From positions 1,054,001 through 1,118,000 of the forward strand of contig CM102289.1 of NCBI GenBank assembly GCA_046563655.1: DNA of 64,000 nucleotides, written 5' to 3'. Within the stretch, counting starts at the first letter, position 1, and each line of letters begins with the position of its first letter. A program made the position numbers and the translations under genes. Positions 24,969 to 54,843 of this stretch are shown in pieces. The DNA is from Yuukianura sp. NJ FZ-2021 (taxonomy: Eukaryota). The notes beneath the pieces were generated by a model, which ran no database searches, had not been told where the DNA came from, and worked only from the letters and a program-made list of their open reading frames with translations.

Positions 24969-26531
24969 TCAAGCCGGTACAATTTTAATTTTTGCTCCGC
25001 CGTATCTAAGGTTACATTGTGCATAGGTGGCATAGTTTAACATTTGGCCATCCATTATTTCTCTAGTTGCGTTAACAAAGTCAGCAAGGCCTTGTTCCTC
25101 CGGAAAAGCTTCAACTAATCGGCGCATAAGTATTTCAATATCAAAAACTAAATTTCGAGTTTGTTTCAGTGCCGTATTGAAAGCCTGCTCAAGTGAAGTC
25201 CCTTCTCGTACGATACTGCGCAGAATACAATTTTCATTGGTAGCTTCTTTCCTAATGTCCTTCTCAATTCCCATCAAGTCGTTCAGCATTCCAGCAAAGT
25301 CTGCTGCTGCCGTGTCCAAAAGTTTAAACAGAAGAGATTTCCTGATTTTCTTGGGAATTGGAACGTCGCAACGCAGCGCATGGACGGCATGCACGAGTGG
25401 AGCAAATCCGACATCGTAGATGCGAATGACCCTCTGCATGTCTTCTGACAATGGCATTGGATCGTGGAGCCGATAGCGTAGAGCTACAGAGCCTGCTCCG
25501 AGGTGACAATGCTTAATGACATACTTGAATCCGTCCGGCAGAACGCCATTTGGAAATTGTCTCCGAGCTTTTTTGATGAAATCAAGCAGCCATAACTTTA
25601 TGACTTCCGGAAGTGGCAGTAGGGCGGTTAGTTTTTGAAAAAAGGCTTCGTCTTGTTCTTCTGAACAGGAGCGGATAGTGTCCCATTCAGGACAAAAGTT
25701 GTCAATGATCATGCGCGTCGTTGCGGAAGGATCGCTTTCCAAGTTTTCCAAGTCCTCTGTGTAGTCATCTATGACGAGAGACATCACAGTCATGGCAATG
25801 GCCGTTTCAAATTCAGGGGACGCCACGTCAACATGCGGAACAGAAAATGTGGCAACAAAGATGCCACCTAACATGCTTTTGTACAGATCCGCTTCGTCCT
25901 TGTCTTCCAGAATTGGACGGAACTTGTCAATGTTCTCATTCAGAATCTTAGTTTGCTCTTCTTTGGTCAGCTCATAGTAGTTAGAAATTGGCATAGATCT
26001 GAAATGTTCATGCCATTTCATCGAATGAATTATCACGAAGTTAATCACCAAGACTGAATGTCTCCGAAACGAATTGCAATGAAAGTTGAATTACCACGAA
26101 ACGAATTACAACGAAAGTTGAATTACCACGTATGTTGTACTACCACAAAACCCCAACAATGGCCTGCTTTATGAAACCTATCGTCCCGTTTTCGGCGTAG
26201 TAACCCATGCTACGTTAGCGGGATATCATGGACTTTCGTAGTAATTCACTTCGTAATAACTCTTTCGATGAAATGACGTGCTCTCGCATAAAGTGCATAG
26301 CATAGATATCAAAATTAACCAATTAATTGAATTTCCTTTCTTTCTAATTAATGTAACCGATCATGAAACTTACTCTTGTGTATGAAGAAGTGGAATTTCT
26401 CCACGGAGTTGTTCACATTTCCCATAGATTGGATGATCAATAGAACCAAAATCAAAAATTAATTTTAATTTTCCTGGCGGACTTTCTGTAATACCCGTGA
26501 GGCGGTAAGCTCCATCTTCAAGTGAAACCAT
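24969..26531 (-). CDS. Microbial-type class I terpene synthase TPS1 (395 aa, 2 exons)
   Basis: Exons 26374-26531 and 24969-25998 (1188 nt). Motifs DDYTE, IRIYDVG (effector Arg), NDLMGIEKD (NSE/DTE-like) and C-terminal RY. Confidence 0.85.
26009..26280. mobile_element. MITE-like insertion in TPS1 intron
   Basis: CATGCCATTTCATCGAATGAATTATCACGAAGT is mirrored by ACTTCGTAATAACTCTTTCGATGAAATGACGTG. Absent from the 74-nt TPS2 intron. Confidence 0.6.
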
Positions 26532-27292
26532 TTTTATGCCAATTTTTAACACCAAATTTTAGGGGACTGGAAAGCAACAACTGAAGTAGAGAACAAAAGT
26601 TGTTCCAATATTTATTCATTTGGGGAGCAGGAAAAATGTTTCAAGGTCTTCCGTCATCAACTGGGTTTTTTGAATCCTTAAAACTTAAAAAAACTTGCTT
26701 TAAAACCAGTTTTTTTATACATGTATTCTCAAAAGATATACTGAGAGTTTTACTGAAGAGTTTTCCAGAGGAACACAATTAAAATCAAAAACTTCCTCAA
26801 TTAATATATTAAAAATAATGTTGTAAAAATAATAAATTAAAAATCATACATTTTGTTAATTTCAAAGCCATGAGAGAAAAATGTATGCCAAGGGCTTTGC
26901 ATCCAAATTTGTCATTGAAAGTCCAAAAAATCATGAATTTTTTTGTCAAGATTATATTTGGATGTGAATTTTGCACAATTCCAAAATCCAATTTTTCAAC
27001 AATTTTCAATTTGAAGGTTACACCTCTAAATTTTAAATTACCTTTCAAACCAATCATTATGTAGCGTTCATCATTTATTATGCTTTATTATTATTGCATA
27101 CTATAATATATTAATATGGAATATATATACAATCTCACTTATCATATATAACAATTTTCTCGAAAACCGTTAAAGATTTACCGAAACAAATAAAGTAGAG
27201 AAATCTTCCATTCGAGCATCAAAAACTACTTTTAAAGCAAACATTTTTTTATTTTGGAATCTGGTTTATATTAAATTTCTTTTTTGTAAATT

Positions 27293-28554
27293 TCAAGCCG
27301 ATACAATTTCAAGTTTTGCATTGCCGTATCTGTATTGAAGTCGTGCAGCAATGACATAACCTAACAATTGTCCATCAATTATTTCTTTCGTTGCTTTAAT
27401 AAATTCAGCAAGACCTTGTTCCTCCGGAAAAGCTTCAACTAATCTTCGCATCAGAATTTGAATATCAGAAACTAAATTTTGAATTCTCTTCAATGCTGTA
27501 TTAAACGCATGCTCAAGTGAAACCCCTTCTCGTACCACACTTCGCAAAATGCAGTTTTCATTTGTAGCTTCCTTCACAATGTCCTTCTCAATTCCAAGTA
27601 AGTCGTTCACAATTCCAGCAAAATCCATGGATGCCGTGTCCAAAAGTTTAAACAAAAGCGATTTCCTGATTTTTTTGGGAATTGGATTCCCATCTTGTAC
27701 TGCATGAATTGCATGCACAACTGGACCAAATCCTGCGTCGTAGCCTCGAATCACTTTTTGCATATCTTCTGACAATGGCATTGTATCGGTCTCTTTGTAG
27801 CGTAGAGCCATCGACTGCAGACTGAGTTTACAGTGGTTTAGCGTATACTTTAAACCGTCCGGTAGAATGCCATTGGGAAAATGTTGGCGCATTTTTTTCA
27901 AAAAGTTCATCATGTAGGATTTCATGGCGTCAGGTAGCGGGACAAAGGAGTTCATCTTCTCCGTAAAACTTTCATCGTTTCCATCTGAACCGTGTTTGAA
28001 TTTGGCCCAATCCACATCACATTGGTCAATGAACATGCGAGAGGCTGTGCTGGGGTCGCTTAGCAACGCTTCCATGTCATCTCCTATGTCATCCAGTGGT
28101 AGACCAAGAGCAGACATTGCAATGCCCGCTTCGAACATATCAGAGAAACAGTCTGCCCGTGGAATAGATACGCTCGTGTACAAAATGGCAAAACGAGTAA
28201 CTTTGTACAGTTCCTCCTCATCTAGAGTTTCTAAAACGGGACGGAATTGTGTAATGCTTTCATTAAGAATCTTAGTTTGTTGTTCTTCGGTCAACTCAAA
28301 GTAGTTTGAAATTGGCAAAGATCTGAAAAAAATATAACATAGCATGCATAACAGTGCATAATTGAAAATTGGAATGTATTGAACAATGCAACTTACTCTT
28401 TTTTATGAAGAAGTGGAATTTCTCCACACATTTTATCACATTTTCCGTAGACTGGATGATCAACAGAACCCAAATCAAAAGTAAATTTCAAATTTCCTGC
28501 TGGATTTTCTGTAATGCTGGTGAGACAGTATGCTCCATTTTCAAGTGAAACCAT
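27293..28554 (-). CDS. Microbial-type class I terpene synthase TPS2 (395 aa, 2 exons)
   Basis: Exons 28397-28554 and 27293-28322. Motifs DDIGD, IRGYDAG, NDLLGIEKD, RY. Same intron position and phase as TPS1. Confidence 0.85.
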
Positions 28555-29398
28555 TTTTTTAAATTTTGTGCAAAATTTTAGCGTTAGGAGTACTGGAAAA
28601 CAACGACTGCCTACGTAGCTGGAAGTTGTGTTAATATTTATTAATTCCTGTGAACAGGAAAAGGCTTTGGGTTTTTTCGAATCTAAAAACTTGCTCCAAA
28701 GAACCAGTTTTTTTTTCCGCGGTGAGAAAAAATGTTGCAAAATAGCAAGACAGAACCAGAAATATATAACTTCATGAAAACTAAAAATCCAATCTTAAAA
28801 ACAGTTTGGATGGCCGTTTTTTCTAGTTTGTTTTTGTAGAAAACAGAAATCCCAAATTCAAAGTGAACAAAATAACTGTGTGATGGGAACATTCTTGAAG
28901 TTTTTAAAAAAAAATGTATGGATAAAATTTAAATTTCTAAATAAAATGTCTATTAAAATGAAAACGTCGACGTTCACTTGATTTTATTAAAATCATCTGT
29001 GAATTTAACAATCAACTTTTGGTTTTCCAAAAATTGGTGTTTTTTTTTTTTTTTGAAAAACATGATGAAACATACAACCTTTTTGTTATTTTGCTTGCTT
29101 TAGACCAATCATAAGACTTGTTCAAATACCGATTAGATTCAGTACACAAACACTTCTCCCAAAGACGGCATGACATATCATTTACGTTTTTTTTTATAAA
29201 ATGTTTAATGTTTGTCAAATTTCAACACTCCAAATTTAATCTACCCAGCACAGCAACTATGGTTATGGTGGCCAAAAGCACGTAACTTTAGGAACTGAAA
29301 ATCAAAGCTTAACGTTTGGTAGAAGCAAGAGTTTTTAGTTTTAACTTTTTGTTAAAAATTTTGTCAGATTTTTGTTTAGAAATTGGGGATTTGCAAAA

Positions 29399-30896
29399 AT
29401 GTCAGAAAAATTAAAGTTTTTGTTTGTCCCGGTTGACGGAGTTGGTCATTTCAATGCTTGTTTTGGCATAGCTTCGGTTTTGAGAGATCGAGGTCACTCG
29501 GTGACCTTTGCAGCTTCAGAAATATGGAGAGGGAAGTTGAAAGCAATGGGATACGATGAAGAACTGTACAAAACGTCTGACGAATCGGCTGAATCGGAAG
29601 AACAAGCTGGAAAAAGGTGGGGTGAAATGATTGCCAAAGTGGCGCCAGCACTTGCAGGTCCAGTAATTGAGTTGCACAAAAAATTTTACTTAAAAATGTG
29701 GGAAGAAATTTTCATCACAGGGAAGTACATTCATGCGCAACTCAAACAAATTGTGGAACGCGTCAAACCAGATGCTATGATTTTGGACATATTTTCTCAC
29801 TGTCCAGCACTCATGGAGTCAGGTAAACACAAAAGTTACAAACTTTTGCATAAAAATACAAAATTACACAGTTGAAAAACAAAAATGTCGAAAAATTTCT
29901 ACTACTTTTAAAATTTCTTAATTTCGTGTAGGAATTCCTTGGATTTCTTCAATTTCTGTGACGCCACTAGGACTTTCGAGAGACAATGTTCCACCGGCGT
30001 ACGCCGGATTTCCAACGGAGGGAAATTCGGAAGAATGGAAAAATTTCGAATCCGAAGTTTCAAAAATTCATAGAAATTTGGAAAACAACTACAACCAATG
30101 GCTGCGTGATGTAGGCAGTAACGAAGAAGTTCAAGTGGAATTTCCGTATATGATGCAACATTCCCCTTATGCCAACATATACATGTATCCACTTGAATTG
30201 GACTACACAGCTTACCGACAACTTCCATCCACTTTTCATCGGTTTGACGCTTTTGTGCGAAAGTCAACCGAAACTTTTGAAGTTCCCGCCAAAATTCAAA
30301 ATGGACCAGGAAAACTGATTTACTTTTCAATGGGAACTTTGGGCTCAATGGAAATGGGAGTAATGAGGAAACTCATTTCAATTTTATCAAACTCTCCAAA
30401 CAGATTCATTGTCTCCAAAGGTAAAATTTCAAAATTTGTACAAAAAAGAAAATTAAAAATTCCAGTTTTTGGTTTAATTTTAGGACCAGCAGGAGATGAC
30501 CTTGACCTTGCAGAAAATATGTGGGGAGAGAACAACGTTCCGCAGTTAGCCATCATTCCGATTGTTGACCTCGTGATTACTCATGGCGGAAACAACACAA
30601 TTACGGAATCCTTTTACTTTGGAAAACGCGTTTTAGTTCTGCCTTTGTTGTTTGACCAACCAGATAATGCTCAACGAATTTTTGAAACTGGACTTGGCCT
30701 GCAATTCAATCCATACAAAGTTTCTGAGCAAGAACTGCTGGTTGCCATAGAAACGCTGCTGGGAGATGATCTGCTCCAACGCAGAATGAAATCCATCTCG
30801 CAAAGAATCCAATCCTCCAACAGCCAATCAAAAGCGGCTGATCTTGTAGAAGAAGTTGCAAGAAAACATAAACAATTTAAAAATTGTTTAAAGTAA
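29399..30896 (+). CDS. Soluble GT1 UDP-glycosyltransferase UGT1 (441 aa, 3 exons)
   Basis: Exons 29399-29822, 29932-30420 and 30484-30896. GVGHFN catalytic His, IYFSMGTLGS, signature VPQLAII..ITHGGNNTITES..PLLFDQ. No signal peptide or TM anchor. Confidence 0.9.
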
Positions 30897-31479
30897 CTAA
30901 AATCTTTTTCAAAGTGGTACTGCTAACACTTTGAACTACTGCACTTGTAGTGAACAGTTGGACTTTTAGCGTTAAAATAAAAGAACAACTTTACTACGGA
31001 AGGTTATTGACTTTTGCAGTAAGAAATTAAACTTTTATTTCAAAGTTAATGTGAAAGGGGGTTGTTGACCTCCGTAGTGCTGAAATTTACCCAGAATATG
31101 TTTTTCAAAACCGAAACTGTAAATTCGAAACTATTTAGTTCTAAAACCAAATCATTATGTCAAGATAATGAAGGTCAAGTGTAATTGTTTTCAAAATTAC
31201 TCTCTAAATGTTGTTGATTATAAAGAAATTAGATTTTAATTACTTTTAGAAACTTCGTACACGCCTGTCCCATAATTTTTTTTTCTTGAAACCTTCTCTT
31301 CTAAATAAAAAGCTTGAAAATTTTCATTCCACTTAAATTCGAAACAAAGTAGCAAGTTTGCAGCAAAAAAAAAAGAAAAGGCGGCTTTTGACTTCTTTTA
31401 GGCAGGAGATCCCGAATTTTTTTTTTAAATTTCTTGACAACTTCATAACTTTTCTTTTCAGAAATTGTGTTGTTGCAAA

Positions 31480-32946
31480 ATGTCAGCAAAGTTGAACATT
31501 TTGTTTGTGCCGATTGACTCAGTAGGTCACTTCAATGCGTGTTTTGGCTTGGCGTCGGTTTTGCGAGATCGAGGTCACGTGGTGACCTTTGCAGCTCAGC
31601 CGACATGGCGAGGCAAGTTGAAAGCCATGGGCTACATAGAAGAATTGTACACAGTGACTGACGAATCGCCTGAATTGGATGAACCAGCGGGAAAAAAGTG
31701 GGGTGACATGATTGCACAAGCAGCGCCAGCACTGGAACTTTCTTTGATTGAATTACACAAACAATTTTATGTTAAACTGTTTGAAGAAATTCACGTTCGC
31801 GGGAAATACAGTCACAATCAAGTCAAGGAAATTGTGGAACGCGTGAATCCAGACGTTATTATTGTGGACATGTTCCACCATATTCCAGCACTTATGGAAA
31901 GTGGTAATCAAAAACAAAGTTTAAGAATTTTCAAAATTTTGAAAAAATACTCCACATAACTTTCAAATTTTTTGAATATTTTTATTCTTGTAGCAATCCC
32001 TTGGATTTCTTCAATTTCAATAACACCACTAGCAATTTCCAGAGACAATGTTCCGCCACCGTATACCGGATTTCCAACGGAGGGGAATTTGGAAGAATGG
32101 AAAAATTTTGAAACTGAACTCAACAAAATTTATAAAAATTTGGAAACCAAACACAACCAATGGTTGCGTGATGTAGGCAGTACCGAAGTAGTTCAAATGA
32201 AATTTCCGTATATGATGCAGCATTCCCCTTATGCCAACATGTACATGTACCCACTTGAATTGGACTACACAGCTTACCGACAACTTCCAAACACTTTTCA
32301 TCGGTTTGATGCTTTTGTGCGAAAGTCAACAGAAACTTTTGAAGTTCCCGCCAAAATTCAAAATGGACCAGGAAAATTGATTTACTTTTCAATGGGAACT
32401 TTGGGCTCGATGGAAATGGGAGTAATGAGGAAACTGATTTCAATTTTATCCAAATCTCCAAACCGATTTATTGTCTCCAAAGGTAGAATTTTCAAATTTG
32501 GTTCAAAAAAAAATCAAAAATTTAAGTTTTTTTTTGTAATTGCAGGACCAGCAGGAGATGACCTTGACCTTGCAGAAAATATGTGGGGAGAGAACAACGT
32601 TCCGCAGTTGGCGATCATCCCAATTGTTGATCTCGTGATTACGCATGGCGGAAACAACACAATTACGGAATCCTTTTACTTTGGAAAACGCGTTTTAGTT
32701 CTGCCTTTGTTATTTGACCAACCAGATAATGCTCAACGAATTTTTGAAACTGGACTTGGCCTCCAATTCAATCCATACAAAGTTTCTGAACAAGAACTGC
32801 TGGTTGCCATAGAAACGCTACTTGCAGATGATCTGCTCCAACGCAGAATGAAATCCATCTCGCAAAGAATCCAATCGTCCAACAGCCAATCAAAAGCGGC
32901 TAATCTTGTTGAAGAAGTAGCAAGAAAAAATGTAAAGAAAATTTAA
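31480..32946 (+). CDS. Soluble UDP-glycosyltransferase UGT2 (437 aa, 3 exons)
   Basis: Exons 31480-31903, 31994-32482 and 32546-32946; same motifs, FDQ. Confidence 0.9.
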
Positions 32947-33870
32947 GTGACGATAGAGATCTACGAGAAAAATTTTAGTTGAAACCAAAAATCAAATTAG
33001 GAATTTCTTGTAGAAAACCGAAATCCCAAATTCAAAGTGAACAAGATAACTCTGTGATGGGAACGTTCTTGAAGTTTGAAAAAAATTGTGGGTAAAATTG
33101 CTAAATAAAATATCTATTAAAATGAAAACGCCGATGTTCAGTTCACTCGTTTTTATCAAACTGTTCCGTAAAAACAATCAACTTTTGGTTCTCAGAATAG
33201 AAAAAATGTTTTTTTTTAAACATGATGAAACACGAAAATTTTTTGTTCTTTTGTTTGATTTAGAACAATCATATGACTTGTTCAAATACAGATTAGATTC
33301 AGTACTCAACCACTTCTCTACAAAACGGCATAGCATATCATATACGTTCTTTAATGCTGTCTAATATTTGTCAAATTTCAACACTCAAAATTTAATCCAT
33401 TCAGCACAGCAGCTATGGTTGTCAAAAGCAAGTAACTTCAGGAATTGAAAATCAACGTTCATTTTGTGGTTGTAACTCGAGTTGTTAGTTTTAACTTTTG
33501 GTTAAAAGTTTTGTGAGAGTTTCGTTTAGAAATTGAAAATTTGCAAAATGTCCGACAAATTAAAGTTTTTGTTTGTCCCGGTTGACGGAGTTGGTCATTT
33601 CAATGCCTGTTTTGGCATAGCTTCGGTTTTGAGAGACCGAGGTCACTCGGTGACCTTTGCAGCTCCAGAAATATGGAGAGGGAAGTTGAAAGCAATGGGA
33701 TACATTGAAGAATTGTACAAAACCTCTGATGAATCGGCTGATTCGGATGAACAAGCTGGAAAAACGTGGGGCGAAATGATTGCTCAAGCGGCGCCAGTAT
33801 TTGAACTTCCAGCGATTGAGGTGCACAAACAGTTTTACGTTAAAATGTCTCAAGAAATTGTCATCACAGG

Positions 33871-36800
33871 TGTAAAAACAATGAGGACTCAATACCTACC
33901 CGGTACTGACTTCCTCCTATTTGGAATACTTGAACGATCTTTTAAGTGTACAAAACTTTATTCCGAATTCAAATTAATCAAATCAAAATCCCAATTAGTA
34001 AAAAAGAGCCAATTTTAGAAGTAAGAGTATGCTCTACCTTATAAGAGAGACAAAAGGGAACTGTCTTTTCAAAAATGGCTACTTGATGATTTCATAACAA
34101 AAAAAAAACTTATACTTATTTTTAGAACTTTTTAAACTCAAAACCCAAACAAAAGTTCCCGCCCTTCTTATCCATAACGCATAGTCACAACCCTTACACA
34201 AATAATAATTTTAACACATTTTAACTTATTTCAACCTATTTTAACATATTTTAACCTAGTTTTAACATACTCCACCTTCGATTGACGGAGTCAATTGAAC
34301 TGTTAAAAGTATTCAAAAGGAAAATTAAATATAAGAGGAAACAATACAATCATGAAATACAACTTAACTAATCAAACAGATACGAACCTTACGGGCTTCT
34401 TAACATTACGACCGCTCCTTGTCTTCACAATTTCTGATTCTGAAACTTCTTCCATTTCTTCCGGTTTATATTCTTCCGTAATCACGGTCCGCTTGTGCTT
34501 CTTTGTGGAAGTGGATGCATCCACTCCATTCGTTGTCACCGGAAAGATGACTTCTCCAGGCGCCAATTCCAGTGGGTACAAGCGTTGTATTGGGCGAGTT
34601 AGCTCTCCGCTCTCCGTTTTGACCTTGGCAACTCGATTTACTCCATCAAGTCCTGGATAGAGTTCCAAAATTCGCCCCATTGGCCAAAGTACACGCTTGA
34701 CGTCTTCACGACCGATCAAAACCAAATCACCGATTTCCAGTGGTTTTGACTTCTGCTCGTTTCCTCGTTGAATCAAAAGTCCCAAGTACTCGCTCCGAAA
34801 CCGATCCTTCAGCTCGTCTAAAAGAACACTCAAATTCTTTCGTTTAATACCCAATTTAGAAGCGGTGAGTACCTCGATCTCCGGTAAACTGGTCACCGGT
34901 AAGTCGTACAAAAACATCGAAGGAGTTAACGGAACGAAGTCGTTTGAGTCTTCGGTCACGAATGTAAGTGGACGATGATTGAGTGACCATTCCACTTGGC
35001 AAAGGCACGTCTCCAGATCCTGGTATGTCAGCTTTGCGTGTCCACACATCCGTTTCAGCAAATCTTTCATACTCCTGATGATCCTTTCCCACCACCCACC
35101 CCACCAGGGTGCTGATGGCGGGTTGAAACGCCAGGAGATCCTCTGTTGTTTTGTTTTCTTCTGGACTTCATCCCAGTCAATCAACTTGAAAAGATTAGCA
35201 GCTCCAACAAAGTTTGTCCCGTTGTCGCTGTAGACAATGGACGGACGTGTCTTCCGCATCGAAAATCTTGTGAAGGCAAGTAGGAATTCTACCGTAGATA
35301 TGGCTGGAACCAATTCGATGTGGACACATCTGTAAACCGCACAGGAAAATATTGTTATCCACACCTTTGAATTGTTCTTTAGCACCAATGGTCCGGCCAA
35401 ATCCACGCCAGTCACGTGAAATGCTGTGACATTCTTCACTCTATTTTCTGGTAATGCTGGTGTCGGTTCAATTTTCTTCGTCGATGTGAAGCGCTGGCAG
35501 ATGAAGCATGAGCGTATAACTTTCTTCACTGCCAGACGTCCCTTCACAATCCACACTTTTTCACGCAGCAGTCCCATCATGATCTGTGCTCCACCGTGAC
35601 AATTGAAAACATGTTCCTCTCGAATTAGCTGGGTTGTGATAGGATGACCATTCGGCAGTAGCACTGGAGTTTTAAATCCCACTGAGTCCTGTCGATTTGT
35701 CAATTTCGTTTTCACCCTAATCAGTCCGTATTCGTCTCTGCAGACTCGAAGCCCAGCAATCATGTTGTCACCAGTGTTGAAAGATTCTTGTTGAACCAGT
35801 AGAGACAACTTCCGTTCTGCAGTATCGATTTCCTCCACCGTCAAAGTTATGGAGTCTTCTCTTCTTTTCGTCTTCAGTGCCTTCAGAAATCGAAGGACAA
35901 ATGCCAAGATGCGAACGTTCACACTGTAACTGTTTTTGACCAAGTACCACAGCTTATCTGTGGAACAAAAAAGAGAAGTTATAAGACCTTTACGTCTTTC
36001 TGAATTAACCAGATCAGGGTCCGAATTAAATTTCTGTTCTGGCCAATCTATTTTCCCCAGTTTTAACCAACTAGGCCCCTCCCACCACTTCAGCGACAGG
36101 AATTTCCGAGGTGTAACCCCTCGAGACGGCAAGTCGGCCGGGTTTAAGTGTCCGGGAACAAACTTCCACTGTTCAACTGTGGTCAGGGATAGGATCTCAC
36201 GGACGCGATTTCCCACAAACGTGCCCCACTCGTCGTTCTTCTTAACCCATGACAGGGCCGTTGTAGAGTCAGTCCAGAACCACGTAGGCACATCTTCCAT
36301 GTCCAATGCTCTCTTAACACTTTTTGCCAATCTAGCACCAATTGAACAGCCTAAAAGTTCGAGTCGGGGAATGTTCACTTTCTTGACTGGGGCCACTCGT
36401 GATTTAGCTTGAATCAATTGAACTTCCACTCTGTCATCAATTTCGGTTCGTAAGAAGATAACAGTGGCGTAAGCACTTCCACTTGCGTCCGAAAACACAT
36501 GTAGTTGAAACTGACTTTGTCCATTCGCTTCTCCAAAGGTACATCGTCTCGGTACACTGAAATTCAGAAACATGTCACTCAGTTCACTATGCCACAAACG
36601 AAATTCCTCAACTAATTCACTTGGAAGTGGCTCATCCCACTTGCGATTCTCACTCCAGGCCTTTTGAATTAACAATTTTGGTACAAGTACCACTGGAGCC
36701 AATAATCCAAGCGGGTCAAACACTTGATGGACGAATGACAACACGACTCTTTTTGAAATCTTTTCTGGAAGTGGATCTGAAATGGAATCAACACATAAAG

Positions 36801-39800
36801 TATCTTCCCCCTTATTCCATTTCAGTCCTAGAACACTTGTCACTTCCCCCGTTTTGTCGCCAGTACACTCCCATTGTCTGAGGTCCATTCCAGCCAATTT
36901 CAAGATGTCGATGGCTTCTTGTTTGAAAATTTCAAACTCTTCGGGCGTATCGACAGACAGAACGCAGTTGTCCACGTAAATGGAGCTCTTCAGCTTTTCG
37001 ATTGTTTCCGGAAACTGCGTTTCTAACTTGTGAAAATGAAAACTGAGAATTGCGCCAAGGAGAAAGGGGCTACAGTTCATCCCGAACACTACACGGTTAT
37101 GTCGATAGATGGTCATCTTCTTGTCTTCTAGATTTTCCCACCACAAGAAGCGAAGAAAATCTCTGTCATCTTCATTGACCTCTATCATCTGGAAAGCCTT
37201 CCTGATGTCTGAGATTACCCCAACTCTTCTCAATCTGAAACGTAACAAAAGTGATGGGATCAGTTCAAGTAGATTAGGTCCCTTTTCGAGGCAACCATTA
37301 AGTGACGGCGCTCTTCCCACTTTGCAGGAAGCGTCGAACACTGGCCGAATTGGTGTAGTCTTGCTCTCTGGCTTCAATACGGCACGATGAGGAAGATAGT
37401 GACAGTTTTCCATTTTTTCTGTCACACGGGAAATCAATCCTTCCTTCTCCCACTCCAAAAAGATAAGACTGTAATCTTCTACTTTACCGAGAGCCACCAA
37501 TTTTCTTGTGGTAGATTCAAGCCGCTGTTGAGCAACTTGCAGATTCGTTGGGATTAGTACTCCATCAGACACCCACGGTAGGCAGACTGAGTACATCCCT
37601 TCGTCACGTTGTTTGACTGTCTCAATAAAATGCTGCTGCGCTCTGGAGTCTTTTTCTTCCTGAGACATGGCTTCTGCAGGATCTGTAATGCCCAGAATGT
37701 CCAGTGACCACAAGTCACAAACACTAGCACTTTGCACAGTCATACAAATCGAAGTCATTGCCAAGTTCACTTCTTTGGGTTGTTCAAATTCCCCCATCAA
37801 AGTCCAACCAAGACGAGTTTCCGTTGCCAAGAGTCCATTCTTCAATCGCTGCAACTTCCCTGTCAACAGATTAGCTAAAAGATCAGCGCCGATTAGAAAT
37901 TCAATTTCTCTTGGATTATGCTCATCAAGGTCATTCACAAAAATTTTCAAACTTTTCAGTTCTTTCAACCAGGATCCTCTAGCGACACGAGGGAGGTTAC
38001 CACAAATAGTTACCTGGTCCATGACTCTCACTTCCATCACAAACGGACTACTTACACTCCGTAGATTGACGTCAAAAATTCCGTGTGGAGTGTTCGAAAC
38101 TTCGGTCCCACCAAAAAGTTGATGGTTCATCGTGAGGGTCTGAAATGGCAGCAACTTCAAGTCCTCAGCGGTTTTCTTGAGCATATAGCTCCGTTGTGAC
38201 CCACAATCCAGAAGGGCACGAACAGTCTTGCATTTCTTTGAAGTCGGATTCTCCAACTTCACCATTAAGGTTCGAAGTACCACTTCACTGGTACAATTTA
38301 AGTTCGACTGAGTCGTTGCCGAATCTTCCTTCTTCTGTTCTGCCTTTCCCATGTTCCGTGGATTAGTAGGGCACATCAAAGGTTCATGTCGCTTTCCGCA
38401 CAAGTTGCATTTGACATTCGACTTACAAGTTTTAGAAATGTGACCTGGCCGAAGACAAACAAAACAGGCACCTTTCTTCTTTAATTTTCCGTTGCGCTCC
38501 TCCATAGTCATCTTCTGCGCAGCGAAACAATTCTTGCTTGCATGGTCCTTGTCACAAAACACACACAAAGTCTTAGCAGAGCCACTAAATAGTCCAGCCG
38601 CGGTGAACGGATCATTTCCTTGCTCAGTTGACTTCGACTTCCGAGAATCCGACCTTCTGTCAGCTGAGTCGAATCCACTTTTGGCTAATTTTCTCTGCTC
38701 CTCGTTATCGATTTCATTTCTGAGAAATTCCATCAAGAAATCGAGTTCACTCTTCGGTGGGGTCAATTTAGAGCCGTCTTGTCCAAAACTGGAACTTCTC
38801 TGCCATGCCACCAGAATTTCTTCCGGTAGACTCGACTCTACCATTGGGAATAAGAAAATTCCCATCTGCTCCACCGTCACTCCAAGAGAGTCCAAAGATC
38901 GAATGTGAGATTCAAGTCGGTCGTAAAGTGTAGAAAGCGCCATCTTTTCTCTCGATTTCATCAGAATCATCGAGATCAATTCCCGAACATAAACTTGCTT
39001 GAGAAGTTTGGGCTTCCCGTACCGATTCTGTAGTGCAGACACAGCGTTTTGGTAATTGGCCTTCGATTGAGGATATCCCTTCACCAACTCTTCCGCTCGT
39101 GATCCTTTCTGCATTGACTGGATGAGGTACGTAAACTTGTCCGCCTCGTCCAGACCTTCGTCCGTATGGATTTTTTCGTACTGGGCCCACCAACCCAGCC
39201 ACTCCTTCAATTCACCCCCGAATTTCCGAAGTTCAATTTTTGGATATTTTGTAGTCGTTTTCCGTTGTGAATATGAAGAAGTGTCGAGACTGTCACTCCG
39301 AGTGCTGCGAGGAATCGATGGATGTAGTAAGTTCTGTACTCTGACTCTTATCTCACTCACTTTGAATTCGTAATCGTGACATGAGTTCATATCTTCCTCC
39401 AGCATCTCTTCAGTAAACTCGTCATCGTCGAACAACAGATTTCTGATGGCTTCGTCAACTTCACTCAGTTTGATCGACTGATTTTCAAGAACCGGCATCG
39501 TAGCTTCGATCTTCACTAAATCGCTGTCGGTTTTCTTTAGTTCAGCATCCAGTGCATTGACCCATTTCGTAACAGCAATTCGAAGCAGCTTCCGATTCTT
39601 CTTGAGTTGATCCATCCCTCAATCTGGTCTCGTCCGGTGAGACCAACCCACGACGTAAACAGGTGGTTAATCGTTGTCGGTTGAGTGGACTTCCTTCCGT
39701 CTCTCGTGGTATCCAACTCGCCAAAATCAAAGCAAAACGAACGGTTAGATTTCCACCAATCTCACGGTAATTGGAACGGTAATCACCTGATTCAGCCCTT

Positions 39801-40495
39801 GTCCGGTAAGGGCGTACCACTACGCAAACAGTTGTTAATGGTGGTCCTTGTGTCCAAGATTCCAGCTCCCAGCGTCAGTTCAATCGCCAAAAGTCATCCA
39901 AAAATGTTCGAGGTTAGAATGAATCAAAATCAGTTTTGAATCAGAACTTAATTCACCTTAGTTAGTCCTCATCCGGTTGAGGACATACCACGATGCAAGC
40001 AAAGTGATCCGGTGTCAATGTTCAGATCCAATCGTTCGGTCCAGATCGTCAAGTTGTCCCTCAGGTTCGTTGTATTCTTAATTAGCACAGGGTCGCCAAA
40101 AAATGTAAAAACAATGAGGACTCAATACCTACCCGGTACTGACTTCCTCCTATTTGGAATACTTGAACGATCTTTTAAGTGTACAAAACTTTATTCCGAA
40201 TTCAAATTAATCAAATCAAAATCCCAATTAGTAAAAAAGAGCCAATTTTAGAAGTAAGAGTATGCTCTACCTTATAAGAGAGACAAAAGGGAACTATTTT
40301 CAAAAATGGCTACTTGATGATTTCATAACTTACAACTTATACTTATTTTTAGAACTTTTTAAACTCAAAAACCCAAACAAAAGCTCCCGCCCATATTATC
40401 CATAACGCATAGTCACAACCCTTACACAAATAATAATTTTAACACATTTTAACTTATTTCAACCTATTTTAACATATTTTAACCTAGTTTTAACA
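33871..40495 (-). mobile_element. Full-length BEL/Pao LTR retrotransposon
   Basis: TGT..ACA LTRs at 33871-34267 and 40104-40495; 5-bp TSD ACAGG (33866-33870, 40496-40500); PBS-like TGGCGACC next to the 5' LTR; PPT-like GAAGGTGGAGTA before the 3' LTR. Confidence 0.95.
34372..39615 (-). CDS. BEL/Pao gag-pol polyprotein (1747 aa, intact)
   Basis: Three Cys/His knuckles (CVFCDKDH, CFVCLRPGH, CNLCGKRH), protease LLDCGSQ, RT YVDN, RNase H FSDAS/IPRLEL, integrase (GVDLAGP, SDNGTNF, WWERII). Confidence 0.95.
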   Translation of the reverse strand: MDQLKKNRKLLRIAVTKWVNALDAELKKTDSDLVKIEATMPVLENQSIKLSEVDEAIRNLLFDDDEFTEEMLEEDMNSCHDYEFKVSEIRVRVQNLLHPSIPRSTRSDSLDTSSYSQRKTTTKYPKIELRKFGGELKEWLGWWAQYEKIHTDEGLDEADKFTYLIQSMQKGSRAEELVKGYPQSKANYQNAVSALQNRYGKPKLLKQVYVRELISMILMKSREKMALSTLYDRLESHIRSLDSLGVTVEQMGIFLFPMVESSLPEEILVAWQRSSSFGQDGSKLTPPKSELDFLMEFLRNEIDNEEQRKLAKSGFDSADRRSDSRKSKSTEQGNDPFTAAGLFSGSAKTLCVFCDKDHASKNCFAAQKMTMEERNGKLKKKGACFVCLRPGHISKTCKSNVKCNLCGKRHEPLMCPTNPRNMGKAEQKKEDSATTQSNLNCTSEVVLRTLMVKLENPTSKKCKTVRALLDCGSQRSYMLKKTAEDLKLLPFQTLTMNHQLFGGTEVSNTPHGIFDVNLRSVSSPFVMEVRVMDQVTICGNLPRVARGSWLKELKSLKIFVNDLDEHNPREIEFLIGADLLANLLTGKLQRLKNGLLATETRLGWTLMGEFEQPKEVNLAMTSICMTVQSASVCDLWSLDILGITDPAEAMSQEEKDSRAQQHFIETVKQRDEGMYSVCLPWVSDGVLIPTNLQVAQQRLESTTRKLVALGKVEDYSLIFLEWEKEGLISRVTEKMENCHYLPHRAVLKPESKTTPIRPVFDASCKVGRAPSLNGCLEKGPNLLELIPSLLLRFRLRRVGVISDIRKAFQMIEVNEDDRDFLRFLWWENLEDKKMTIYRHNRVVFGMNCSPFLLGAILSFHFHKLETQFPETIEKLKSSIYVDNCVLSVDTPEEFEIFKQEAIDILKLAGMDLRQWECTGDKTGEVTSVLGLKWNKGEDTLCVDSISDPLPEKISKRVVLSFVHQVFDPLGLLAPVVLVPKLLIQKAWSENRKWDEPLPSELVEEFRLWHSELSDMFLNFSVPRRCTFGEANGQSQFQLHVFSDASGSAYATVIFLRTEIDDRVEVQLIQAKSRVAPVKKVNIPRLELLGCSIGARLAKSVKRALDMEDVPTWFWTDSTTALSWVKKNDEWGTFVGNRVREILSLTTVEQWKFVPGHLNPADLPSRGVTPRKFLSLKWWEGPSWLKLGKIDWPEQKFNSDPDLVNSERRKGLITSLFCSTDKLWYLVKNSYSVNVRILAFVLRFLKALKTKRREDSITLTVEEIDTAERKLSLLVQQESFNTGDNMIAGLRVCRDEYGLIRVKTKLTNRQDSVGFKTPVLLPNGHPITTQLIREEHVFNCHGGAQIMMGLLREKVWIVKGRLAVKKVIRSCFICQRFTSTKKIEPTPALPENRVKNVTAFHVTGVDLAGPLVLKNNSKVWITIFSCAVYRCVHIELVPAISTVEFLLAFTRFSMRKTRPSIVYSDNGTNFVGAANLFKLIDWDEVQKKTKQQRISWRFNPPSAPWWGGWWERIIRSMKDLLKRMCGHAKLTYQDLETCLCQVEWSLNHRPLTFVTEDSNDFVPLTPSMFLYDLPVTSLPEIEVLTASKLGIKRKNLSVLLDELKDRFRSEYLGLLIQRGNEQKSKPLEIGDLVLIGREDVKRVLWPMGRILELYPGLDGVNRVAKVKTESGELTRPIQRLYPLELAPGEVIFPVTTNGVDASTSTKKHKRTVITEEYKPEEMEEVSESEIVKTRSGRNVKKPVRFVSV

Positions 40496-42062
40496 ACAGG
40501 GAAGTACACTCATGCGCAACTCAAACAAATTGTGGAACGGGTCAAACCAGATGCTATGGTTCTGGACATATTTTTTCACACTCCGGCACTCATGGAATCT
40601 GGTAAACACAAAAGTCACAAACTTATGCACAAAAAAGTCAAAATCTTTTTTTTTTGAAACTTTTTTGAGCTTTCCCGATTTTGTTTTCAAGGGATTCCTT
40701 GGATTTCTTCAATTTCCATTATGCCGCTAGGACTTTCGAGAGACAATGTTCCACCGCCGTACGCCGGATTTCCAACGGAAGGAAATTTGGAAGAATGGAA
40801 AAATTTTGAAACTGAACTCAAAAAAATTTATAAGAATTTTGAAACTGACTACAACCAATGGCTGCGTGATGTAGGCAGTACCGAAGTAGTTCGACACCAA
40901 TTTCCGTACATGATGAACCATTCCCCTTATGCCAACATGTACATGTATCCACTTGAATTGGACTACACAGCTTACCGACAACTTCCAAGCACTTTTCATC
41001 AGTTTGACGCTTTTGTGCGAAAGTGAACTGAAACTTTTGAAGTTCCCGCCAAAATTCAAAATGGACCAGGAAAATTGATTTACTTTTCAATAGGAACTTT
41101 GGGCTCAATGGAAATGGGAGTAATGAGGAAACTCATTTCAATTTTATCCAAATCTCCAAACAGATTCATCGTTTCTAAAGGTAAAATTTTAAAGTTTGTA
41201 TTCAAAAAATTTCGAAATCTGCATTCAAAAAAATCAGAAATTTCATTTTTTTTTAATTTTAGGACCAGCAGGAGATGACCTTGACCTTGCAGGAAATATG
41301 TGGGGAGAGAACAATGTTCCGCAGTTAGCGATCATTCCGATTGTTGATCTCGTGATTACGCATGGCGGGAACAACACAATTACGGAATCCTTTTATTTTG
41401 GAAAACGCGTTTTAGTTCTGCCTTTGTTATTTGACCAACCAGATAATGCTCAACGAATTTTTGAAACTGGACTTGGCCTGCAATTCAATCCATACAAAGT
41501 TTCTGAGCAAGAACTGCTGGTTGCCATAGAAACGCTGCTGGGAGATGATCTGCTCCAACGCAGAATGAAATCCATCTCGCAAAGAATCCAATCGTCCAAC
41601 AGCCAATCAAAAGCAGCCGACCTTGTTGAAAAAATTGCAAGAAAACACTAATGGAATAATACGCCCCAAAAACACAGTTTTATCACCAGGTTGAAATAGT
41701 TCAAATAGGTTCAAACTGGAATATTAATTCTTTGCGCTTAATTAAATTTAACTTCTTCAACGTGTTTCGCGTGTCAAGGGCAACTACGCACGTAATTTCA
41801 TAAGTGCATTTTACAGCTGTTATAAATAAAATATGTCTATTAAAATGAAAACGTCGAGGTTAATCTGTTTTATCAAAGTGCACCTTGACTTGACTTAAGC
41901 ATTCTGCAAGTTCTAGTTTTCAAAAAAAGATTAGGATAAATATCACGACGTCGCAGTATGATTAGTAATAAGTTCAATTTTTGATTAAAACACGAGTTTT
42001 CGTTTTCACTTTTGGCTAAAAGTTTTGTGAGATTTTTGCTTAGAAATTGAAGATTTGCAAAA

Positions 42063-43555
42063 ATGTCCGAAAAATTAAAGTTTTTGTTTGTCCCGGCTGA
42101 CGGAGTTGGTCATTTCAATGCTTGTTTTGGCATAGCCGCGGTTTTGAAAGATCGAGGTCACTCGGTGACCTTTGCAGCTCCAGAAATATGGAGAGGGAAG
42201 TTGAAAGCAATGGGATACAATGAAGAACTGTACAAAGTGTCTGATGAATCGGCTGAATTGGATGAACAAGCGGGAAAAAAGTGGGGTGAAATGATTGCTA
42301 AAGTGGCGCCAGTAATTGCAGGTCCAGTAATTGAGTTGCACAAAAAACTTTACTTAAAAATGTGGGAAAAAATTTTCATCAAAGTCAAGTACGTCCATGC
42401 GCAACTCAAACAAATTGTGGAACGTGTCAACCCGGATACTATGATCTTGGATATGTTTTCGCACTGTCCAGCACTCATGGAATCAGGTAAACACAAATGT
42501 TATAAACTCAAACAAAAATAATTCAAAATGATCAAGGAATGACGCGAATGAAAAAAAAAGTGACGAAAAAGTTGTACCAACCTTTTAAATTTTTGGGAAT
42601 TTGCAATTTTTTTGTAGGAATTCCTTGGATTTCTTCAATTTCTGCGGCGCCGCTAGGACTTTCGAGAGACAATGTTCCACCGGCGTACGCCGGATTTCCA
42701 ACGGAAGGAAATTTAGAAGAATGGAAAATTTTTGAAACTGAACTCAAAAAAATTTATACAAATTTTGAAAACAAGTACAACCAATGGCTGCGTGATGTTG
42801 GTAGTAACGAAGTAGTTCAAATGAAATTTCCGTTTTTGATGCAACATTCTCCTTATGCCAACATGTACATGTATCCACTTGAGTTGGATTATACAGCATA
42901 CAGACAACTTCCAGCCACTTTTCATCAGTTTGACGCTTTTGTGCGAAAGTCAACTGAAACTTTTGAAGTTCCCGCCAAAATTCAAAATGGACCAGGAAAA
43001 CTGATTTATTTTTCAATGGGAACTTTGGGATCCATGGAAATGGTAGTAATGAGGAAACTCATTTCAATTTTATCCAAATCTCCAAACAGATTCATTGTCT
43101 CCAAGGGTAAAGTTTCCAAATTTGTATTCAAAAAATCAAAAATTTCAGGTTTTGTTTTAATTTTAGGACCAGCAGGAGACGACCTTAACCTTGCAGGAAA
43201 TATGTGGGGAGAGAACAATGTTCCGCAGTTAGCGATCATTCCGATTGTTGATCTCGTGATTACGCATGGCGGAAACAACACAATTACAGAATCTTTTTAC
43301 TTTGGAAAACGCGTTTTGGTTCTGCCTTTGCTATTTGACCATGGAGATAATGCTCAACGGATTTTTGAAACTGGACTTGGCCTGCAATTCAATCCATACA
43401 AAGTTTCTGAACAAGAACTGCTGGTTGCCATAGAAACGCTGCTTGGTGATGATCTGCTCCAACGCAGAATGAAATCCATCTCGCAAAGAATCCAATCGTC
43501 CAACAGCCAACCAAAAGCAGCCGATCTTGTTGAACAAGTTGCTAGAAAACACTAA
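42063..43555 (+). CDS. Soluble UDP-glycosyltransferase UGT4 (433 aa, 3 exons)
   Basis: Exons 42063-42486, 42618-43106 and 43167-43555. Signature ends FDH rather than FDQ. Confidence 0.9.
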
Positions 43556-43963
43556 TGGAATAATACACTCCAAAAACAAAGTTTTATCACCAGAAAACTA
43601 AAAACATAGCGCAGAATCATAATAACTCAGAATTTTAAAAAAACTAACATTTTATTTTTGAATTAAACAAAAAAAAAACATTTTTTACGCAAAATTATAG
43701 AAAAGGAAGAAATTTAGGAACCGTTCATACTCATGCCAATCCTGTTCACAAGTTGCTCTAAAATATGGTGGTAGATTCAGCAATAACAAAACTGGAACAA
43801 AAAAAATTTTCTTTGAAATTAAAAACAAAGTTTTTTAACCTCGAATTTTTAAAATTAAATGATACCTTCGTAAATCGGCGAACAAATGTCGTTGTTTTAG
43901 TTTAAATTTTTAGTTTAAATTCAAATATCTTATACACTTTTTTTTGAACAAGCAAAAAAGGAA

Positions 43964-45487
43964 TTAAGCGGGAACAATTTTAAGTTCACTGGAACCGTAG
44001 CGAAATTGAACTTGTGCCGCAATGACGTACGCCACAGTTTGTCCATCCATAGCGTCTTTACATGCGTTAATAAATTCACTCAAGCCCTTCTCCTCTGGAA
44101 AAGCCTCTAACAAGCGACACATCAAAATTTTAATATCAGAAATCAAATTTTGAAGTCGTTTTAGTGCCGCCATGAACTCCTCTTCCAATCCCTTTCCATC
44201 ACGGACTACACTGCGTAAAATGCAATTCTCAAGAGTTGCTTCCTTCTTAATATCCTTTGTTATTCCAATTAAGTCGTTCAAGATTCCCGCGAAATCTAAT
44301 ACTCCAGTGTCCAAAAGTTTAAACAAAAGACTTTTTCGAATTTTTTTGGGAATTGGTTTAGTGTTTTGGAACATCAAAAGTGCATGCACAACTGGACCAA
44401 ATCCAGCGTCATAACCACGAATCACTTTCTGCATGTCTTCTGAAAACTGCATTGGCTCGTGTGCTTTGTAGCGGAGAGCTTGAGCCTGCGCACTCAATCC
44501 AAAATGTTGCAACCCATACTTGCCACTGTCTGGAGCTCCATTTGGAAATTGCTTGCGCAGTCTCGACACATAATCAGCTACGACCACTTTCAGTCGTTCA
44601 TCCACTGGAATCAGTTTAGTCAATTTGTCCAGTTGATCAGCATCGTACTGTTCTGAGCCATTGCGTACTTGTTTCCAGTCAATATCCAATTTGTCAATGA
44701 TGAGGCGACTTGCTGCCGAAGTGTCGCTCAACATCAGTTCCAAATCTTCTCCCGCGTCGTCAATCATTGGTGCCAAAGCATTCAATCCAGCGGCCATTTC
44801 AAATAAATCTGAAAAGCAGTCGACATGCGGACCCACCGTACAGGAAAACATGATGGCAAAATACATATTTTTCTCTAGATCGTCTTCATCCAATGTGTCT
44901 AGCAACGGACGGTATCGCGCAGTAGTTTGACTTATAAGCTTACTCTGCTCCGCTTTGTCCAAGTCGAAAAAGTTGGAAATTGGAAACGATCTAGAAAAGA
45001 AGGCAGCAAATTACTTTCAGCTCATCAAAAATAAAAATTTGTCGCATAGCTATCCGCCCTCTGTTCAAGGAACCCGATAGCTCAGTCGTTAGAGATCATA
45101 TTCACGGAGTGAAGAGTATGCGGGTTCGAGTTCCATTCGGTTATAATTTTTTTTCATGCGGCCATTCCCCATCTCTCAAGCCGTGCGAGCCCCGAGCCTG
45201 GCAGGAAGCAAAAAACCAAAGCAGCGAAAAGAAAAATAGATACGAGAGTGTCGATAACAAAAAAAATGCAAGAAACACATAGTGGCGAATATAAAAATGG
45301 CGAAAAAACATAGCCCAGAAAACACTTACTCTCGTGGGTGAAAGAGTGGAATTTCGCCACAAAGTGGACCCGTTTTTCCATAAATGGGATGATCAATTTG
45401 GCCCAAATCAAAAACTAATTTTAAATTTCCTGGTGGGTTGTCTGTAATACAGGTGAGACGGTATGCTCCATTGTCAAGTGAAACCAT
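43964..45487 (-). CDS. Microbial-type class I terpene synthase TPS3 (394 aa, 2 exons)
   Basis: Exons 45330-45487 and 43964-44990. Motifs DDAGE, IRGYDAG, NDLIGITKD, RY. Same 158-nt first exon as TPS1 and TPS2. Confidence 0.85.
45070..45142 (+). repeat. tRNA-like repeat copy in TPS3 intron
   Basis: GATAGCTCAGTCGTTAGAG..CGGAGTGAAGAG..GGTTCGAGTTCCATTCGGTT followed by a T-run. Confidence 0.65.
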
Positions 45488-53734: not shown

Positions 53735-54843
53735 ATTTCTTATTTTTTTAATTTCCTTTTTTCTTTTATTTGCACTCCGAAAGCTTGAACACAAAAGTGA
53801 CTGACGTGAAAAAAAAAGTAAAAGTCAAGGAGGGTGAATACTGTAGTGCAATAAACTTGATTAATTTGAATACAAAAAGTAGTATACTCGGGATTTCAAA
53901 AATGTAAGAAATGTACAGCGTATTTCACAAACTGCGTTCTTTAAAAAAAGCTATAGAGTAAGCAGATTTAACAAAAAATATAATAAGTTCCAATTATCCT
54001 TGCTTTTTTGTAAATCTTTGTTAAAAACTTCGCTGTTCTTGTATCATTTTTTCTTTTTTGTGCAAAAAAAAAACATTCGTGGTCAGTTTTTTGAGACGGC
54101 CACTGTACACCATGATTGGCTTTCTGTTAGATCTTGATTCAGTTAAACTCAATACAACTCCCAAATTGGAATTACTGCAAACGAAAGCAGGCAAATGTAA
54201 GCATAACAAATGAATGACAAAGGCGTTGTGCAGATTAAAAACTGCCCCAAACTACTTTTCTTAAAAAATAAAACACCCATGGAAGTAGGACAAGATTCCT
54301 TCAAAAATTGTTTTGATTTTTTTTTACTTTTTCATTAGCAAAAATTTCAGATCTCGTGCAAAATGCTTTCAGTTTTCGAAATTAATGGGAATTATTTAAA
54401 GTCGGCATTTCGTGTTAAACTTTTTAAAAGTTCCGCCCCCGGACATAGAATTGCGCCGAAAATTTTTTAAATTTGTTTTTCTTTCATGCAATACATATAC
54501 AAAGAAATTAATTTTTACCGCAAACTCATCGATATTTGCGATTTCGTTTTCAGGCTTAAGAGTCTTTTACTTCATTTGAACAATTTAACTATAATGAAAT
54601 CCTCTATACAAACCTCGTGTTTGACAGTTCCAAGGACTTGAAAATTTTAAAGACCAAAATTTTAATATTTTTTAAAAGGTTTAAATTTTTTGAAAACGTT
54701 TATTACGATTAGAACTAAATTTTAGTTTTCGTTTTGCCACTTGCACACGGTAAATGTTCGTGCAGAATTTGGTATAAACGACACGCCAACCTCCGACTTT
54801 ACTACCATTCACTTTAGCATTTGATTTTGAGTCATTGCACAAA

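Follow-up and report, generated by a model that had tools for sequence, protein, structure and literature searches.

Three genes for predicted microbial-type class I terpene synthases with a shared intron position in Yuukianura sp. NJ FZ-2021

Described synthases and the three genes of the window

Canonical terpene synthases (TPS) have been reported in springtails, mites, and fungus gnats, and FcTPS2, FcTPS5, and AfTPS2 have been assayed (PMC11665903). A second report surveyed 26 springtail genomes and lists 277 synthase genes from 21 of them, on average 13 and at most 40 per genome, with introns in 55% of the genes; four active ScTC enzymes were characterized, and the origin of the family was left unresolved (PMC13638087). 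Here we analyzed a stretch of 64,000 nucleotides (the window) from Yuukianura sp. NJ FZ-2021, positions 1,054,001 to 1,118,000 of contig CM102289.1 (assembly GCA_046563655.1), which lies within a 10.2-Mb contig of the 98.7-Mb assembly. It contains three genes, TPS A, B, and C, whose products are most likely active, host-encoded, soluble class I terpene synthases of the springtail microbial-type family. The trio are further members of the published family and probably lie outside the 277 genes already catalogued.

Like the published springtail synthases, the proteins are of the single alpha-domain class I type with approximately 400 residues, a DDxxD-type motif, a sensor arginine, an NSE-type second metal motif, and an RY pair. 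Frequent introns, species-level expansions, and an N-terminal extension are also held in common, and ScTC1 and ScTC5 contain a stretch that by eye resembles the N-terminal beta element of the trio. The trio differs in the second metal motif, where all five ScTC enzymes, read by eye, have serine at position 5, whereas A, B, and C have glycine there and a terminal aspartate; the source genome also holds at least 43 such loci, against the published maximum of 40 (PMC13638087). NDxxGxxxD together with DDxxD and RY is reported in active animal enzymes, the type I synthases of sponges (PMC9992776, PMC13483135); these come from another phylum and are described as a separate clade, and their likeness to the trio may reflect either kinship or convergence. 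The solved bacterial and fungal synthases (7zrn, Copu9 7ofl, T-muurolol synthase 9hqd, and epi-isozizaene synthase) have the same fold and motif spacing but carry a Ser/Glu second motif and retain a tryptophan and a –3 aromatic residue. The insect synthases derived from isoprenyl diphosphate synthases (IDS), of the flea beetle, stink bug, and butterfly types, which PMC11665903 sets apart from the canonical ones, also make terpenes in hexapods and have a remote alpha-helical isoprenoid fold in common with the trio. These enzymes carry two DDxxD-type motifs as in FPPS/GGPPS, whereas the trio has an NSE-type motif and RY. Word-index protein searches for gene B, alignment A1, and the bacterial domain gave 0, 2, and 1 matches, respectively, with no named arthropod synthase among them.

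An earlier note on this DNA, made from the sequence alone, had described three intron-containing genes for proteins of about 395 residues, each with a phase-2 intron after nucleotide 158, and the gene models confirm this (Table 1). The products of A, B, and C have 394, 395, and 395 residues, respectively; exon 2 is approximately 1030 nucleotides long, no internal stops were found, and all three introns have the donor GTAAGT and the acceptor AG. Splicing is predicted from sequence and cross-species conservation. The motifs DDxx(D/E), RxxDxG, NDxxGxxKD, and RY were found as claimed, at the same positions in the three proteins. The first aspartate of DDxx(D/E) is residue 130 in each, including the three differing versions of the aspartate-rich motif (DDYTE, DDIGD, and DDAGE) that had been listed; the sensor arginine (RGYDAG, RGYDAG, and RIYDVG in A, B, and C) is 47 residues ahead of the second metal motif, against about 46 in the class at large, and RY is 92 residues past it.

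The protein identities are 57% (A–B), 54% (A–C), and 61% (B–C), with synonymous divergences (dS) of 1.05, 1.14, and 0.66 and ratios of nonsynonymous to synonymous divergence (dN/dS) of 0.33, 0.33, and 0.44, respectively. Residues 54–230 are the most divergent part (41–47% identity, dN/dS 0.38–0.44) and the C-terminal part is the least divergent (63–73% identity, dN/dS 0.21–0.35). Since dN/dS is below 1 in all regions measured (0.21–0.56), positive selection was rejected as a demonstrated property of the trio. The alternation of DDxxD and DDxxE, previously read as a sign of product diversification, is not indicative alone. The 16-residue stretch IPKKIRKSLLFKLLDT is identical in A, B, and C, as had been stated, but it varies among the nearest paralogs elsewhere in the genome and was rejected as a special signal. 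Its codons differ at silent sites, so the stretch has been kept by selection or by a short conversion. Gene C and L097, a paralog on contig C3, encode nearly the same protein sequence in exon 1, whereas exon 2 of L097 has only 47% identity with gene B. Within the trio, dS is lower for exon 1 than for exon 2; together these observations suggest conversion or shuffling of exon 1.

Searches of the genome for TPS genes gave 41 and 32 matches, which after the merging of split pieces correspond to at least 43 loci on seven contigs, broken copies included; the trio are three of these. A scan of metagenomes found four related loci, in two of which (L090 and L091) exon 1 is in view. Both carry a phase-2 intron at the identical place, and their exon 2 sequences are 37% and 32% identical to that of B. 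An exon homologous to exon 1 of TPS A is present in at least 12 paralogs and in these same two metagenome contigs. Because the intron is common to genes that are only 32–37% identical, it is by this comparison older than the trio cluster and probably older than the species. The shared intron supports the earlier proposal that the genes are integrated in the host genome and were duplicated after intron gain. As for the horizontal origin proposed with it, the transfer would be ancient and is not tied to this cluster; a recent transfer was ruled out, since the intron and the family are both old. The family would have entered the lineage through ancient transfer, gained the intron early, and then expanded, and the local trio would have arisen by tandem and segmental duplication.

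Other family members have unusual architectures. In the host genome, L068 (G000:C5, ~8.778–8.781 Mb) encodes a terpene synthase fused to a cis-prenyltransferase, as does P0041, an intronless metagenome protein; the two fusions may be independent because their TPS domains are not sisters in the tree. Two intronless paralogs (L076:4713-5954 and its neighbor) have a basic, Ser-rich N-terminal leader of 50–80 residues that is unstructured in the model and resembles a mitochondrial targeting peptide; the second motif of both begins with NA rather than ND.

Enzyme class and active site

The assignment to the microbial-type rather than the IDS-derived class is borne out by the family, fold, and profile evidence. 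In the hidden Markov model search that the earlier note had proposed as a check, B and C matched Pfam PF19086 with 33.7 and 31.5 bits, both above the cut-off of 23.7, and A fell below it; no polyprenyl synthase family match was obtained at E ≤ 1 for TPS A–C. An AlphaFold2 model of gene B exon 2 (29-row alignment, pLDDT 87.4) has the single alpha-domain terpenoid synthase fold. Its best structural match is 10-epi-cubebol synthase (7zrn; Z 25.9, root-mean-square deviation (rmsd) 2.9 Å, 284 aligned residues), and solved microbial synthases align with Z values of 24–26 and an rmsd of ~3 Å over ~285 residues at 13–15% identity. All matches listed for this model are terpene synthases except the TPS-fold prenyltransferase DabA at rank 19, and neither FPPS nor GGPPS is among them. 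The structure prediction thus points to microbial class I synthases, as does a Foldseek search with the same model, and grouping with FPPS/GGPPS, the outcome named beforehand as speaking against the class, did not occur. When a profile of alignment A1 was compared with the PDB sequences, the best 60 of 105 rows carried the names of terpene synthases or TPS variants (best E 1.3e-20). Matches in the ESM Atlas were to generic terpene synthase clusters only. The published class I consensus for the second motif, (N,D)Dxx(S,T,G)xxx(E,D), permits both glycine and aspartate at the positions in question (PMC4180811), and that for the first motif is stated as DDxxD/E (PMC10563020). In the trio the second metal motif is of the NSE type with RY downstream, and the two aspartate-rich motifs of IDS/FPPS/GGPPS were not found. 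No signal-peptide-like stretch was seen in the TPS proteins.

Metal binding and ionization by these motifs are well established for class I enzymes. In the trio, DDxx(D/E) and NDxxGxxxD would bind the diphosphate group of a prenyl diphosphate substrate (geranyl, farnesyl, or geranylgeranyl diphosphate (GPP, FPP, or GGPP), or longer) along with three Mg2+ ions, and the arginine of RxxDxG and the RY pair would clamp the diphosphate. Ionization would then give an allylic cation that is quenched by proton loss or by the capture of water. The ND pair, the lysine and terminal acid, the sensor arginine, both leading aspartates, and RY are kept in all three proteins. From the sequences we infer that each copy is active and that the products may differ among the copies.

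Motif residues were counted on a 93-row alignment of 34 host, 24 animal-like metagenome, 21 bacteria-like, and 14 ordinary bacterial rows. Glycine at position 5 of the second motif (Gly5) was found in 29/34, 23/24, 0/21, and 0/14 of these rows, respectively, and aspartate at position 9 (Asp9) in 21/34, 21/24, 0/21, and 2/14. The frequency of both residues across the host and animal-like metagenome rows makes Gly5/Asp9 a trait of a broad animal subfamily. The divergent motif singled out by the earlier note is therefore present in the trio, but it is not a local oddity and it has a precedent in active enzymes: NDxxGxxxD is reported in 12 of 13 characterized synthases from sponges (PMC9992776) and in 9 of 10 from a second sponge (PMC13483135). 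These active sponge enzymes rule out Gly5/Asp9 as a mark of lost activity.

The subclade of the window genes is further set apart by its predicted pocket. A tryptophan before the last helix turn is present in 14/14 ordinary bacterial rows and 16/21 bacteria-like rows but in 0/34 host rows, and an aromatic residue at –3 from the first aspartate is found in 0/6 rows of the subclade versus 13/13 of the next-nearest rows. The latter position corresponds to F96 of epi-isozizaene synthase. Exchange of this residue in epi-isozizaene synthase is reported to redirect the product (PMC10563020). With the –3 aromatic and the tryptophan both lost, the pocket is predicted to be roomier and less aromatic, which would favor long substrates or structurally simple products (acyclic alkenes or alcohols, macrocycles) over complex polycycles. 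The loss of the two aromatics in this subclade appears to go beyond the accounts given in PMC11665903 and PMC13638087.

Several observations weigh against the assignment of the trio as active synthases. ScTC4, reported as the sole inactive enzyme among ScTC1–5, has DDxxE as do A and C (PMC13638087). Gly5 was read by eye in 0/5 of the ScTC enzymes, and ScTC1–5 thus appear to include no characterized arthropod enzyme of the Gly5 subfamily. The match of gene A to PF19086 is only 13.8 bits (E 0.048), the missing pocket aromatics may point to weak or altered chemistry, and numerous paralogs in the genome carry degenerate motifs or interrupted frames. Gene A, though below the PF19086 cut-off, is 54–57% identical to B and C, and the second motif of the active ScTC2 (by eye) also ends in aspartate.

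The TPS fold could have been retained for prenyl transfer to a nucleophile, as in DabA, or for hydrolysis that gives only alcohols of the geraniol/farnesol type. The loss of the aromatics that steer cyclization would fit such a role, DabA matches the models of both gene B exon 2 and an intronless paralog (Z 22.4 and 27.4), and FcTPS5 is reported to yield only geraniol and farnesol (PMC11665903). We nevertheless consider this unlikely: for gene B, DabA ranks behind true synthases, the four catalytic motifs of a synthase all persist at normal spacing, and the capture of water to form an alcohol is itself terpene synthase chemistry. It is quite unlikely that one or more copies are catalytically dead yet conserved for binding or as a scaffold, or are heading to loss, because the motif residues named above are all kept in the trio and the C-terminal half has a dN/dS of 0.21–0.35; this is set against the reported inactivity of ScTC4 (DDxxE) and BcTPS4 in published assays, the genome paralogs with NA for ND or without RY, and the position of gene A as the weakest Pfam match. 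Microbial contamination of the assembly, which the microbial type of the protein family might suggest, has practically no chance of being correct. It was ruled out by spliceosomal introns at a common position, the occurrence of the same intron in two independent metagenome contigs, the spread of at least 43 loci over seven large contigs, a base composition that resembles the flanks, and the animal genes that surround the trio.

Relatives in intracellular bacteria

A HMMER search of 1.84 billion representatives gave 51 matches, of which the top ones are animal-like and are followed by intronless proteins. These bacteria-like proteins share with the animal genes an N-terminal FDLG-type element and an RYG followed by a strand. 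One protein of this kind is encoded in a GTDB genome that bears the name Ca. Aquirickettsiella, where its gene lies beside that for a cytochrome P450 (P450), amid bacterial housekeeping genes. Close matches (E < 1e-97) were found in 3 of 21 genomes of this genus and in 0 of 10 others of its order, and the P450 neighbor is kept at three loci of the genus. The putative synthases of Ca. Aquirickettsiella (L061, L063, L064, and L067) and 17 other bacteria-like rows resemble the animal genes in the beta element and the RYG and C-terminal strand, and they group with them in both likelihood trees. The Aquirickettsiella synthases differ from the trio in that they are intronless, have Ser5/Glu9, and are about 20% identical to gene B, a value taken from close relatives of L061. 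In the model of an intronless host paralog, the N-terminal element consists of four strands (pLDDT ~96) and is accompanied by the C-terminal strand; in a fold search with this model many rows span residues 52–413. A profile of 23 host N-termini gave positive scores at the corresponding position for 13 of the 21 bacteria-like rows, but with E < 0.001 for only two of them, and for none of the 14 ordinary bacterial rows, some of which are trimmed or partial.

The gene order P450, terpene synthase, and secreted phosphatase-like protein is conserved at L061, L063, and L064 in three genomes of the genus, and a terpenoid pathway in these intracellular bacteria is possible. The gene at L067:1462-3777, in the same genus, encodes a class I synthase domain and, after it, a region of ~390 residues that has no Pfam match but contains DDVD and QW-like motifs reminiscent of class II cyclases. 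P0011, from the bacteria-like group, is a protein of 779 residues with two tandem terpene synthase domains.

The grouping of host, metagenome, and bacteria-like rows was unsupported in a FastTree analysis of all 93 rows. It was recovered at 95/93 with IQ-TREE (LG+G4) on 62 of the 93 rows, from which near-duplicates and partial rows had been dropped, and at 91/92 (unstarred) with a mixture model on 40 rows, from which long branches had been dropped as well. The 40-row tree shows a three-way split among a bacteria-like clade, three multi-intron host genes, and a Gly5 clade that includes the window genes. A single animal clade was not rejected in the approximately unbiased (AU) test (p 0.08), so multiple transfers lack demonstration. 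The outgroup consisted of 9–14 prokaryotic rows and contained no mite, gnat, fungal, sponge, or coral enzymes. Genomes marked as unpublished supplied two of its rows, L081 in the FastTree and LG+G4 trees and L082 in the FastTree tree; both rows also entered the motif counts. Four of the 21 bacteria-like rows were placed in a genome and 17 were unplaced, and the closeness of these rows is partly built in because they were found through their similarity to gene B. A profile of the four genome-verified bacterial proteins outperformed a profile of ordinary synthases on only 11 of the 34 host rows, which limits the origin lead. The patchy occurrence within a single genus could equally reflect loss or acquisition from a host.

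No relatives were found in a GTDB pattern scan and a metagenome scan with A4, or among viral contigs in scans with A2 and A5; a viral fold library gave only an Orpheovirus synthase (E 4.7e-4, 11% identity). Among 400 sampled genomes of Gammaproteobacteria and 401 of Pseudomonadota, no close member turned up other than G001. We found no literature that links terpene synthases to Rickettsiella or Aquirickettsiella, and “terpen” was not found in a preprint on Rickettsiella comparative genomics. Among endosymbionts, one of the springtail reports checked Rickettsia and Wolbachia only, and found no link (PMC11665903).

By these comparisons the nearest named non-animal relatives appear to be those of Ca. 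Aquirickettsiella, which is a lead on the origin of the family with moderate tree support and a thin outgroup, and which appears to go beyond the accounts given in PMC11665903 and PMC13638087. We tentatively suggest, as a possibility short of an even chance, that the springtail synthases descend from the same most recent ancestor as a synthase clade found in Rickettsiella-group symbionts, which live inside arthropod cells; that this clade is marked by a small beta-sheet formed of the N-terminal element and the C-terminal strand; and that the genes were exchanged between symbiont and host, perhaps repeatedly. In the same proposal, the Gly5/Asp9 subfamily with its loss of aromatics would be a distinct enzyme group and a candidate source of springtail long-chain terpenes, or of alcohols on which the head-to-head UGT proteins act.

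Glycosyltransferase neighbors and significance

Three-exon genes for UGT glycosyltransferases are interleaved with the trio (Table 1).

Table 1. Positions of the TPS and UGT features in the window
Feature	Position	Strand	Remarks
TPS A, exon 1	45330..45487	-	158 nt; codes for the N-terminal beta element
TPS A, intron	44991..45329	-	339 nt; phase-2, GT-AG
TPS A, exon 2	43964..44990	-	DDAGE from 44761; RGYDAG from 44419; NDLIGITKD 44278-44252; RY
TPS B, exon 1	28397..28554	-	158 nt
TPS B, intron	28323..28396	-	74 nt; phase-2, GT-AG
TPS B, exon 2	27293..28322	-	DDIGD from 28093; RGYDAG from 27748; NDLLGIEKD 27607-27581; RY 27331-27326
IPKKIRKSLLFKLLDT in TPS B exon 2	27682-27635	-	
TPS C, exon 1	26374..26531	-	158 nt
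TPS C, intron	25999..26373	-	375 nt; phase-2, GT-AG
TPS C, exon 2	24969..25998	-	DDYTE from 25769; RIYDVG from 25424; NDLMGIEKD 25283-25257; RY
UGT1	29399..30896	+	three-exon, mite/bacterial type; head-to-head with TPS B, start codons 844 nt apart
UGT2	31480..32946	+	intact frame
UGT3	33548..41651	+	exon 1 split by Bel/Pao long terminal repeat (LTR) retrotransposon (33871-40495)
UGT4	42063..43555	+	intact frame; tail-to-tail with TPS A
UGT5	46812..48311	+	just outside 24969..45487, the range of the earlier note; head-to-head with TPS A, start codons 1324 nt apart

The best solved relatives of the UGT proteins are the spider mite enzymes UGT203A2 and UGT202A2, followed by bacterial enzymes. UGT genes of this type in mites and Folsomia are reported as transferred genes (PMC9113151). 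The Bel/Pao element in UGT3 is full-length, with an open frame of 1748 residues, LTRs that are 96.5% identical, and a 5-bp target duplication (ACAGG). A sixth UGT copy (58951-60448) has a frame break in exon 2 and is either a pseudogene or the result of an assembly error, and part of the 3′ end of a further copy is found at ~58157-58406. The 3′ ends (last exon) of the four intact UGT copies are homogenized (dS 0.21–0.27), whereas dS for the 5′ part of UGT5 is 0.86–1.04; gene conversion among the copies is therefore likely.

The interleaved genes might, in addition to the synthase activity proposed above, form a small pathway cluster in which terpene alcohols are glycosylated for storage or detoxification, although we find this rather doubtful. 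The two head-to-head TPS/UGT pairs are consistent with it, as is the agreement between dS for UGT5 versus UGT1/2/4 (0.86–1.04 in the 5′ part) and for TPS A versus B/C (1.05–1.14), as if a pair had been duplicated. Three of the 14 UGT clusters have a TPS cluster no more than 30 kb away, versus 0.41 expected (p 0.006), and with the window excluded 2 of 13 do (p 0.04); this calculation assumes uniform placement, which ignores that expanding families share regions, and leaves out weak matches and a UGT cluster on contig C8, which has no TPS matches. However, the nearest TPS paralogs (C3 1.18 Mb and C4 9.24 Mb) have no such UGT nearby, the window is full of receptor-like genes as in a general duplication hotspot, and one segmental duplication accounts for both pairs without selection. 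No paper on a TPS–UGT cluster in Collembola was found in our literature search.

Receptor-like genes of two kinds flank the cluster. Long, nearly intronless ionotropic-receptor-like genes with weak Lig_chan matches lie at 3910-6393, 48987-51729, 54778-57377, and 60830-62560, and gustatory-receptor-like exons, recognized by eye and with no Pfam match, flank the cluster at 21587-22150 and 52340-53824. Only two matches to the odorant receptor family (7tm_6) were found, both weak. Elsewhere, L094 (G000:C4 7.55 Mb) and L095 (C10 1.26 Mb) are multigene mitochondrion-like inserts in nuclear contigs, in which the reading frame of nad2 or cox2 is broken. Their order, nad2-W-C-Y-cox1-L(taa)-cox2, is presumably the pancrustacean one, which would exclude mites. 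Together with the scarcity of 7tm_6 matches and the UGT genes of the mite and Folsomia type, this order fits a springtail as the most likely host.

Three more synthases of the springtail type add little by themselves, since 277 are already catalogued and several have been assayed (PMC13638087, PMC11665903). The trio are, however, candidates from a subfamily for which we found no published assay, whose motif has so far been tied to sponges, and whose pocket is predicted to be unusual, and new products are plausible for these reasons. The lead on the origin of the family matters more than the trio itself, as both of the springtail reports discuss where these genes came from.

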